Shown: one piece after another, positions 11,074 to 16,647 of the stretch
Position numbering within the stretch: the first letter of the stretch is position 1
Layout: every line of letters begins with the position of its first letter
Virus record (IMG/VR): IMGVR_UViG_2734482579_000003
Strand: one strand, 5' to 3'
DNA length: 16,647 nt
Origin: a virus
Taxonomy: Duplodnaviria > Heunggongvirae > Uroviricota > Caudoviricetes
The notes under the pieces: generated by a model
The model's input: the letters and a program-made list of their open reading frames with translations, nothing else
Databases searched by the model: none
What the model was told of the DNA's origin: nothing
Translations under genes and position numbers: made by a program

Positions 11074-14754
<3,681 letters not shown>

Positions 14755-14780
<26 letters not shown>

Positions 14781-15300
14781 TCAGCAACCCCGGTATCAGT
14801 TCATCCAGCGCGGCTGCTTTGTTCATGGCTTTGATGATATCCCGTTTCAGGAAATCAACATGTCGGTTTTCCAGTTCCGGAAAACGCCGCTGCACCGACA
14901 GGGGGATCCCGTCGAGAATACTGGCAATTTCACCTGCGATCCGCGACAGCACGAAAGTACAGAATGCGGTTTCCACCACTTCAGCGGAGTCTCTGGCATT
15001 TTTCAGCTCCTGTGCGTCGGCCTGCGCACGCGTAAGTCGATGGCGTTCGTACTCAATAGTCCCTGGCTGGAGATCTGTCTCGCTGGCCTGCCGCAGTTCT
15101 TCAACTTCCCGGCGCAGCTTTTCGTTCTCAATTTCAGCATCCCTTTCGGCATACCATCTTATAACGGCGGCAGAGTCATAAAGCACCTCATTACCCTTGC
15201 CACCGCCTCGCAGAACGGGCATTCCCTGTTCCTGCCAGTTCTGAATGGTACGGATACTCGCACCGAAAATGTCAGCCAGCTGCTTTTTGTTGACTTCCAT
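14755..15300 (-). CDS. Nu1: Terminase small subunit Nu1 (181 aa)
   Basis: ORF 14755..15300, 181 aa, same length as lambda gpNu1. N-terminus MEVNKKQLADIFGASIRTIQNWQEQGMPVLRGGGKGNEVLYDS (winged-HTH DNA-binding domain). Sits directly downstream of cosB. Confidence 0.95.
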
Positions 15301-15477: not shown

Positions 15478-15489
15478 CGCCTTCCGCCC
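15478..15489 (-). other. cosN cohesive-end region, variant sequence relative to canonical lambda
   Basis: Flanks match lambda (GCGAAAACCCGCG on one side, CGTAACCTG on the other). The 12-nt core reads CGCCTTCCGCCC on the plus strand, i.e. GGGCGGAAGGCG in lambda orientation, versus canonical GGGCGGCGACCT as I recall it. Confidence 0.6.
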
Positions 15490-15519: not shown

Positions 15520-15525
15520 GCAAAA

Positions 15526-15540
15526 TGATAATAATTATCA
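15526..15540. promoter_or_regulatory. Perfect 15-bp palindrome TGATAATAATTATCA matching the Fur-box 7-1-7 consensus
   Basis: Read directly from sequence: TGATAAT-A-ATTATCA, perfect dyad symmetry, immediately distal to cosQ. Confidence 0.4.
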
Positions 15541-15688
15541 TCTACATGTCACAACGTGCATCTACGCCATCAAACCACGTCAAATAATCAATTATGACGC
15601 AGGTATCGTATTAATTGATCTGCATCAACTTAACGTAAAAACAACTTCAGACAATACAAATCAGCGACACTGAATACAGGGCAACCTC

Positions 15689-15922
15689 ATGTCAACGAAG
15701 AACAGAACCCGCAGAACAACAACCCGCAACATCCGCTTTCCTAACCAAATGATTGAACAAATTAACATCGCTCTTGTTCAAAAAGGGTCCGGGAATTTCT
15801 CAGCCTGGGTCATTGAAGCCTGCCGCCGGAGACTGTGCTCAGAAAAAAGAGTTTCGCCTGAAGCAAACAAAGAAAAGAGTGACATTACTGAATTGCTCAG
15901 AAAACAGGTTAGACCAGATTGA
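15689..15922 (+). CDS. Small ribbon-helix-helix (Arc/MetJ/CopG-like) putative DNA-binding protein, 77 aa
   Basis: ORF 15689..15922. After a basic Arg/Thr-rich N-terminal tail, the segment NIRFPNQMIEQINIALVQKGSGNFSAWVIEACRRRL fits the RHH beta-strand / helix / Gly turn / helix pattern. No strong Shine-Dalgarno; start uncertain. Confidence 0.5.
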   Translation: MSTKNRTRRTTTRNIRFPNQMIEQINIALVQKGSGNFSAWVIEACRRRLCSEKRVSPEANKEKSDITELLRKQVRPD

Positions 15923-15979
15923 AGCAATTTAGATAATCGTGCAGACTACGCCCCCTCATATCACATGGAAGGTACTACA

Positions 15980-16390
15980 ATGGCTCAGGTTGCCATTTTT
16001 AAACAAATATTCGATAAAGTGCGAAATAATTTAAACTATCACTGGTTTTATTCTGAACTAAAACGTCACAATGTCTCACATTACATTTACTATTTAGCCA
16101 CAGAGAATATTCATCTTGTTCTTGAAAACGATAATACGGTTTTAATAAAAGGACAGGGTAAGGTTGTAAATGTAAGATTTTCAAAAAATAAATGCCTTAT
16201 AGAAGCCACCTTAAAAGGATTCAAATCAGGAGAGTTATCATTTTACGAATACAGGAAAAATCTTGCTACAGCAGGGGTTTTCAGATGGATTACAAATATC
16301 CACGAAAACAAAAGGTATTACTATACCTTTGATAATTCATTACTCTTTACTGAGAACATACAGAACACTACACAAATATTTCCGCACTAA
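15980..16390 (+). CDS. YbcV/DUF1398-like hypothetical protein (136 aa), AT-rich moron-type gene
   Basis: Tracked ORF 15965..16390; the ATG at 15980 ([11 protein letters not shown]...) is preceded by GGAAGG at good spacing and gives 136 aa. The gene is visibly AT-rich compared with the GC-rich structural genes. Resemblance to E. coli DLP12 YbcV is from memory, not alignment. Confidence 0.6.
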
Positions 16391-16398
16391 ATCATAAC

Positions 16399-16427
16399 GT
16401 CCGGTTTCTTCCGTGCCAGAACCGGAC
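16399..16427. terminator. GC-rich hairpin (8-bp perfect stem gtccggtt/aaccggac, extendable to 10 bp with one bulge) just after the YbcV-like stop
   Basis: Inverted repeat read from sequence. No clear U-tract on the plus strand; a moderately U-rich stretch follows on the minus strand. Confidence 0.3.
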
Positions 16428-16558: not shown

Positions 16559-16647
16559 TGGATTTGCCCCTATATTTCCAGACATCTGTTATCACTTAAC
16601 CCATTACAAGCCCGCTGCCGCAGATATTCCCGTGGCGAGCGATAACC
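16559..16647 (-). mobile_element. IS2: Terminal ~90 bp of an IS2 insertion sequence (right inverted-repeat end), continuing beyond the window
   Basis: From 16559 the sequence tggatttgcccctatatttccagacatctgttatcacttaacccattacaagcccgctgccgcagatattcccgtggcgagcgataacc is the reverse complement of the IS2 right end as I recall it (...GGTTATCGCTCGCCACGGGAATATCTGCGGCAGCGGGCTTGTAATGGGTTAAGTGATAACAGATGTCTGGAAATATAGGGGCAAATCCA). Confidence 0.8.
16570..16647 (-). CDS. insD: IS2 transposase OrfB (InsD) C-terminal fragment, 5'-truncated by window edge
   Basis: Minus-strand translation of 16647..16573 gives ...GYRSPREYLRQRACNGLSDNRCLEI followed by stop TAG at 16572..16570, matching the IS2 OrfB C-terminus from memory. 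Confidence 0.7.
   Translation of the reverse strand, partial: GYRSPREYLRQRACNGLSDNRCLEI

Follow-up and report, generated by a model that had tools for sequence, protein, structure and literature searches.

We analysed two adjacent plus-strand genes, a ynfO/ylcI-like gene (DUF3950) and a DUF1398 gene, which lie between positions 15689 and 16390 of the IMG/VR record IMGVR_UViG_2734482579_000003, a 16,647-nucleotide stretch of DNA from a virus of the Caudoviricetes (hereafter, the window). A preliminary description of this DNA, made from the letters alone, had proposed that the two genes form an antitoxin-toxin or regulator-effector module. Our results rather indicate that they are probably two separate accessory genes of lambdoid prophages: an allele of ynfO/ylcI with a ribbon-helix-helix (RHH)-like product, and a self-contained DUF1398 cassette. 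This reading rests on the identity of the genes, purifying selection on both of them, the foreign base composition of the second, their independent distribution and a conserved block 5' of the DUF1398 gene. Both genes are already annotated, as ynfO/ylcI and ydfO/ybcV of lambda and the K-12 prophages, and the pair is not new. The two genes are:

15689 to 15922, plus strand: ynfO/ylcI-like gene, 77 aa, YlcI/YnfO family (Pfam DUF3950), identified by hidden Markov model (HMM) matches and by 97.9% nt identity to ynfO of the K-12 prophage Qin
15980 to 16390, plus strand: DUF1398 gene, 136 aa, homologue of ydfO, ybcV and lambda p78, identified by matches to PF07166 and to the structure 2HH8

The product of the first gene can be assigned to the YlcI/YnfO family, as it exceeded both curated HMM cut-offs (Pfam PF13132, DUF3950: 2e-20, 72.8 bits for a cut-off of 25; NCBIfam NF041551, YlcI_YnfO_N: 35.2 bits for a cut-off of 30) and matched PHROG 949 at 6e-33. 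The second product is likewise assigned by similarity to the DUF1398/YdfO-like proteins: it matched PF07166 over the full profile (positions 1-119 of 119; 3e-43, 147 bits) and the nuclear magnetic resonance structure of YdfO, 2HH8, over residues 1-135 (2.9e-67, about 80% aa identity). Two start codons are available to this open reading frame (ORF), at 15965 (141 aa) or 15980 (136 aa). We retained 15980 because a GGAAGG sequence lies 7 nt upstream and because the other ATG (15965) is not in frame in lambda or DLP12; the RefSeq annotation also has the 136-aa form. The coordinates, the length of the second protein and its DUF1398/YbcV-like nature had thus been correctly described, as had the fact that neither protein has an established function. 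The GC content is 31.4% for the DUF1398 gene (GC at third codon positions, 30.7%), 44% for the ynfO-like gene, 53% for Nu1, 54% for TerL and 55.6% for the window. With 31% GC against 53–56% in its flanks, and a presence/absence polymorphism (Stx phages lack it at this slot, and it occurs in other flanks elsewhere), the DUF1398 gene is compositionally foreign cargo of the lysis-to-cos slot, in line with the putative moron of the preliminary description.

The two genes behave as separate accessory genes and are not an obligate pair. By tblastn, 155 phage records matched DUF3950 and 43 matched DUF1398, at least 112 of the records with DUF3950 being devoid of DUF1398. As an example, a Stx2 phage whose packaging module is of the HNH/TerS/TerL (HK97) type carries DUF3950 alone at the same junction. 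Conversely, DUF1398 was found without a DUF3950 ORF in three settings: ycgX (L046:3001-3405), beside bluR/iraM/icd in E. coli; a locus beside icd in Citrobacter; and a lambdoid prophage in which Nu1 and DUF1398 are separated by a ProQ-like gene (loci L134 and L136-L138 for the latter two). When DUF3950 was sought in the six frames of these solo-DUF1398 loci (hmmsearch --max), the best E-value was 0.24; all of these loci retain TTGAAx-N17-CAnACT upstream of the gene. Divergence is also discordant: between the window and Qin, ynfO has a dS of 0.015 and DUF1398 one of 0.67, and the cassettes therefore recombine independently. Finally, a single DUF3950 tail is paired with DUF1398 alleles that are about 20–24% divergent in amino acids, the other tails being found elsewhere.

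A number of observations weigh against this separation. The genes are co-directional, as previously noted, with a spacer of 57 nt (and not about 55), in which no terminator was found; the plus-strand scan upstream of the ynfO-like gene yielded no consensus sigma-70 promoter; among the 80 IMG/VR loci closest to the ynfO allele, DUF1398 comes directly after the gene in 79, a tight linkage within the lineage; and a DUF3950 gene is nearby in all the lambda-type phages with DUF1398 that were examined. On the side of the protein, the AlphaFold2 (AF2) model of DUF1398 was poor (pLDDT 52), with no informative fold match. Most of these points would be expected if the RHH-like protein were a dedicated regulator of DUF1398, both genes forming one operon in the Qin-type layout. 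However, the adjacency at 79 of the 80 loci is not independent evidence because these loci are near-identical copies of one DNA segment. The same proposal has to face the records with DUF3950 alone, the occurrence of DUF1398 with the same 5' block in the absence of DUF3950, the opposite-strand ybcW gene that splits the two genes in lambda and DLP12, and the discordant divergence. We therefore regard a regulator-effector pair as unlikely, and a regulatory link between the ynfO-like gene and DUF1398 as possible only if it is local and specific to this lineage. A type II toxin-antitoxin module, in which the RHH protein would be both antitoxin and autorepressor and DUF1398 the toxin, is very improbable: co-occurrence is not obligate, as shown by the record counts and by the solo loci of each gene, and the genes do not form a coupled bicistron in which the antitoxin C-terminus would match its toxin, because a promoter-like block is present in the 57-nt spacer, ybcW is inserted in lambda, and the tails and the DUF1398 alleles are mismatched. 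The module proposed in the preliminary description is thus not retained.

The separate nature of the DUF1398 cassette is also seen in the DNA preceding it, in which the following elements were identified:

15903 to 15919, plus strand: PdhR-type box AACAGGTTAGACCAGAT, 10 of 14 positions matching the consensus, overlapping the last codons of the ynfO-like gene
15919 to 15947, plus strand: promoter-like block, TTGAAG (15919-15924), a 17-nt spacer of variable sequence and CAGACT (15942-15947), defined by conservation across alleles
15910 to 15937, plus strand: alternative promoter-scan hit, TAGACC (15910-15915) and GATAAT (15932-15937), spacer of 16
15967 to 15972, plus strand: Shine-Dalgarno sequence GGAAGG, located 7 nt from the start codon at 15980 and shared by all prophage alleles

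A TTGAA(G/A/C)-N17-CA(N)ACT sequence, with a spacer of constantly 17 nt, is present 5' of every DUF1398 gene examined, namely those of the window, lambda, DLP12, Qin, Tritos, ycgX (44% aa identity), Citrobacter and the ProQ-type prophage. At the sequence level, this conservation has the pattern of a promoter. A GGT(N3)ACC box lies just upstream of the block in most DUF1398 alleles. The box of the window is one base apart from that of Qin, and this base falls in the unconstrained 3-nt spacer. Anzai et al. identified the boxes located at the same position in Qin and DLP12 as PdhR sites by genomic SELEX (gSELEX), for ynfO>ydfO and ybcV/ybcW respectively, and the ybcV mRNA was 10-fold lower in a pdhR mutant (PMC7660256). 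In the Qin-type layout, to which the window conforms, the last codons and the stop codon of the ynfO-like ORF fall within this DUF1398 regulatory block.

The ynfO-like ORF is a real protein gene under purifying selection. The conserved DUF3950 domain corresponds to residues 1-50, the C-terminal tail varying between alleles; comparison of codons 1-50 with the Stx-phage allele revealed 17 synonymous and 8 non-synonymous changes (dS 0.81, dN 0.07), that is a dN/dS of 0.07–0.10, in agreement with its initial treatment as a coding gene. We considered that the ORF might not encode a protein, its conservation reflecting cis-acting DNA beside cos. The DNA separating cos from the ORF (200 bp) and the first 150 nt of the latter are indeed 96–100% identical across lambda, Qin, DLP12 and the window, and the Shine-Dalgarno sequence of the window allele is weak. 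However, the excess of synonymous changes within 50 codons, and the fact that homologues of 35–50% identity keep the motif, with good ribosome-binding sites, in elements whose flanks are unrelated, make this explanation extremely doubtful. The DUF3950 family is small (108 clusters at 50% identity in 1.84 billion proteins), with an invariant core, IRFP...NFSAWV..AC. Upstream of the gene, one element was recorded:

15587 to 15619, no strand assigned: inverted repeat ATCAATTA...TAATTGAT, 70–100 bp 5' of the ynfO-like start, a candidate operator/promoter region only

The same sequence is found in lambda, Qin and DLP12, and no conserved promoter elements were shared between the upstream regions of the window-type and Stx-type DUF3950 genes. 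In K-12, ylcI is transcribed and ybcW-ylcI form a convergent excludon (PMC12288877).

The preliminary description had identified the YnfO-like product as a small RHH protein. Its fold was examined by modelling and by profile comparison, which delineated one region:

15728 to 15838, plus strand: putative Arc/Mnt-like RHH core, residues 14-50 (NIRFP strand segment, helix 19-32, helix 34-52)

This putative core is preceded by a basic arm, MSTKNRTRRTTTR. The AF2 monomer comprises an extended segment (residues 13-18), which is not assigned as a strand, followed by helices 19-32 and 34-52, with a pLDDT of about 82 for the core and 67 for the whole model. The core aligns without gaps with the Arc/Mnt motif N-L-R-W-P...G-R-S-x-N-S (both reference sequences were checked against 1ARQ and 1MNT). 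Using hhalign, YnfO residues 14-47 were placed on Arc 11-47 with a score of 16.8 and a probability below 10%, a score reached by 2 of 300 column shuffles. HMMER profile searches against PDB and Pfam returned no RHH family for DUF3950, and Foldseek returned nothing significant. As in P22 Arc and Mnt, the protein is a small phage protein with a basic N-terminal arm, and in the ungapped alignment with them NIRFP matches N-L-R-W-P, the putative inter-helix loop contains a glycine and the predicted helix B begins at a serine; unlike them, it is encoded in a cos-proximal context and not in immI, and the similarity is marginal, with no HMMER-level relation. An RHH fold is likely although unproven, and the N-terminal domain is most likely a dimeric Arc/Mnt-like RHH domain predicted to bind DNA. 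The initial identification is thus plausible.

DUF3950 genes are found in a variety of genomes. Such a gene is repeatedly the only one that runs antisense to a long operon, whether of late or of replication genes, and, in lambda-type genomes, it lies about 200 bp from cos. The DNA end near the DUF3950 gene is, in lambda-type phages, the one that enters the cell first. A DUF3950-related gene (L133:3968-4183) is the sole opposite-strand gene of a satellite-like element with the order integrase-AlpA-BroN-...-primase. Of 18 diverse aligned members, 2 (P0299 and P0332) are fusions of DUF3950 with a terminase small-subunit helix-turn-helix (HTH) domain (Terminase_2, 1.6e-11). YlcI/YnfO genes have been reported in capsid-forming PICIs (phage-inducible chromosomal islands) from Enterobacter (PMC13612085). 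A relation of DUF3950 with Rpp, the PICI packaging-redirection protein, was considered and rejected, Rpp being a winged HTH protein.

The DUF1398 ORF is also a real gene under purifying selection, the dN/dS between alleles being 0.2–0.35. The window gene represents a third allele, 81–85% identical in nucleotides to ydfO and ybcV, which is found at ≥99% identity in 1,063 records. Diversifying selection in the divergent centre of the gene was considered and rejected, as omega is 0.09–0.36 with high dS, indicative of an old divergence. Scans of the protein revealed no hydrophobic or transmembrane segment and no signal peptide, and no match to a toxin family or in PADLOC was obtained. A contig scan with the DUF1398 alignment (close peptide patterns) retrieved only Escherichia/Shigella sequences and lambda-DNA contamination, and no distant relatives. 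None of the papers found to mention DUF1398 assigns it a function. CRISPR interference (CRISPRi) knock-down of lambda p78 left plating unaffected, and the gene is non-essential (PMC10695390); an ionic liquid strongly induces ydfO, a gene cited as increasing oxidative-stress resistance when over-expressed (PMC4077768); and the glycogen content was altered by a ybcV over-expression clone (PMC2853380). The over-expression phenotypes of DUF1398 homologues in the literature are thus non-lethal. K-12 ydfO has been listed as 'essential only by TraDIS' (transposon-directed insertion-site sequencing) despite its location in a cryptic prophage (PMC5821084), which may reflect poor transposon access to an AT-rich gene rather than true essentiality. 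The labels 'head protein' (PHROG 413) and 'putative envelope protein' (GenBank lambda records) would make DUF1398 part of the virion or of the envelope. This is hardly credible and these labels are without support, since the gene is antisense to the late operon, its product has no signal peptide or hydrophobic segment, the lambda knock-down had no plating effect, and chromosomal copies such as ycgX lie outside prophage structural modules. Downstream of the gene, no intrinsic terminator was found, the only hairpin being a 6-bp one at 16401-16425 without a T run.

The closest known system is ynfO-ydfO of K-12 Qin (with nohA), in which the layout is identical: Nu1 homologue (minus strand), cos, ynfO (plus strand), 57 nt and DUF1398 (plus strand). 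Qin ynfO also has the 77-aa form, and the PdhR-type box and the 5' block are shared. The differences reside in the DUF1398 gene, which is about 81% identical in nucleotides and about 80% in amino acids to ydfO, with a centre of 60–78% nt identity, and in the downstream DNA, gnsB/cspI in Qin and the end of an IS3-family insertion sequence in the window. In lambda and DLP12, the order is ylcI, ybcW (opposite strand), ybcV (lambda p78) and bor. There too, both families are antisense to late transcription in the slot between the lysis genes and cos, the DNA from cos to ylcI is nearly identical and the DUF1398 5' block is the same. However, ylcI has a 64-aa form, ybcW separates the genes and bor follows, whereas the window has neither ybcW nor bor; the window DUF1398 protein is 76% identical to that of lambda. 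The gene lambdap79 (ybcW) is reportedly mentioned six times in a 2026 bioRxiv preprint about a defence domain of the NADase (DUF4062) type, and this small lambda neighbour may therefore interact with a defence system.

The window as a whole corresponds to the reversed left arm of a lambda-like prophage, with tail and head genes on the minus strand. Its landmarks next to the two genes are:

12855 to 14780, minus strand: TerL, from ORF and annotation
14755 to 15300, minus strand: Nu1, from ORF and annotation
about 15478 to 15489, read on the minus strand: cos, from sequence comparison with lambda

The two ORFs studied here, to the right of cos, are the only plus-strand genes, as previously described: the remaining long ORFs are all on the minus strand, and so are the annotated genes of the 98–100% identical E. 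coli chromosome segment. The segment under study is present at ≥80% coverage in 2,629 of 5,426 complete E. coli genomes. The 12-nt cohesive-end sequence is GGGCGGAAGGCG in the window and GGGCGGCGACCT in lambda, with conserved flanks; a recognisable cos was present in 75 fetched loci, of which 9 have the GGGCGGAAGGCG variant. A promoter-like sequence directed at cos/Nu1, GTGACA-16-TATCAT (10/12), is present at 15525-15554 on the minus strand as a consensus match only, and overlaps a palindrome, GATAATAATTATC, at 15527-15542. An Rfam search returned only spurious miRNA matches, on the cosB hairpin. The last 89 nt of the window (16559-16647), 168 bp past the DUF1398 stop codon, are an IS3-family element end, 95.5% identical to sequence adjoining an 'IS3 family transposase' CDS in locus L051; because of this end, the segment search also returned extra places and plasmid matches. 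Finally, the lambda allele was found in dozens of 'homologues' from unrelated taxa (L004-L043 and many of the protein entries, from Staphylococcus, Kitasatospora, Cohnella, Flavobacterium and others). Many of these contigs are of ∼3.5 kb, such as CP136411.1, a 3,566-bp 'plasmid' of Arcanobacterium hippocoleae. They look like contamination of public assemblies by lambda control DNA, deposited in some cases as plasmids.

Taken together, these results lead us to propose that both genes, antisense to late transcription in the lysis-to-cos slot, would be expressed from the prophage while late transcription is off, as suggested by lambda bor and lom. The first would encode a predicted Arc-like small DNA-binding protein linked to the lysis/packaging junction in many lambdoid phages and found in PICI/P4-like satellites as well, whether DUF1398 is present or not. 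The second would be a portable cassette made of the promoter-like block, the PdhR-type box, the Shine-Dalgarno sequence and the AT-rich ORF, whose soluble, cytoplasmic product would be dispensable for lytic growth and might serve host physiology or the stress response rather than phage growth. By analogy with ybcV, its promoter is probably responsive to PdhR, and hence to the pyruvate state. As the 3' end of ynfO runs into the DUF1398 block in the Qin-type layout, read-through co-transcription may occur but would not define the arrangement. A more ambitious proposal, which we consider quite unlikely, is that DUF3950 is an Arc-like regulator of the lysis/packaging junction common to lambdoid phages and PICI/P4-like satellites, which could control terminase/cos usage or helper-satellite interference, DUF1398 being a separate, pyruvate-gated (PdhR) conversion gene.

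Nothing in the window is unusual when compared with K-12 Qin or lambda, and we advise against taking the two genes for a toxin-antitoxin or defence candidate. The two genes are nevertheless among the last uncharacterised genes of lambda itself and are present in most E. coli genomes. The points of use are the unsupported nature of the DUF1398 database labels, the independent occurrence of DUF3950 in phages and satellites, and the portable, conserved promoter block of DUF1398.
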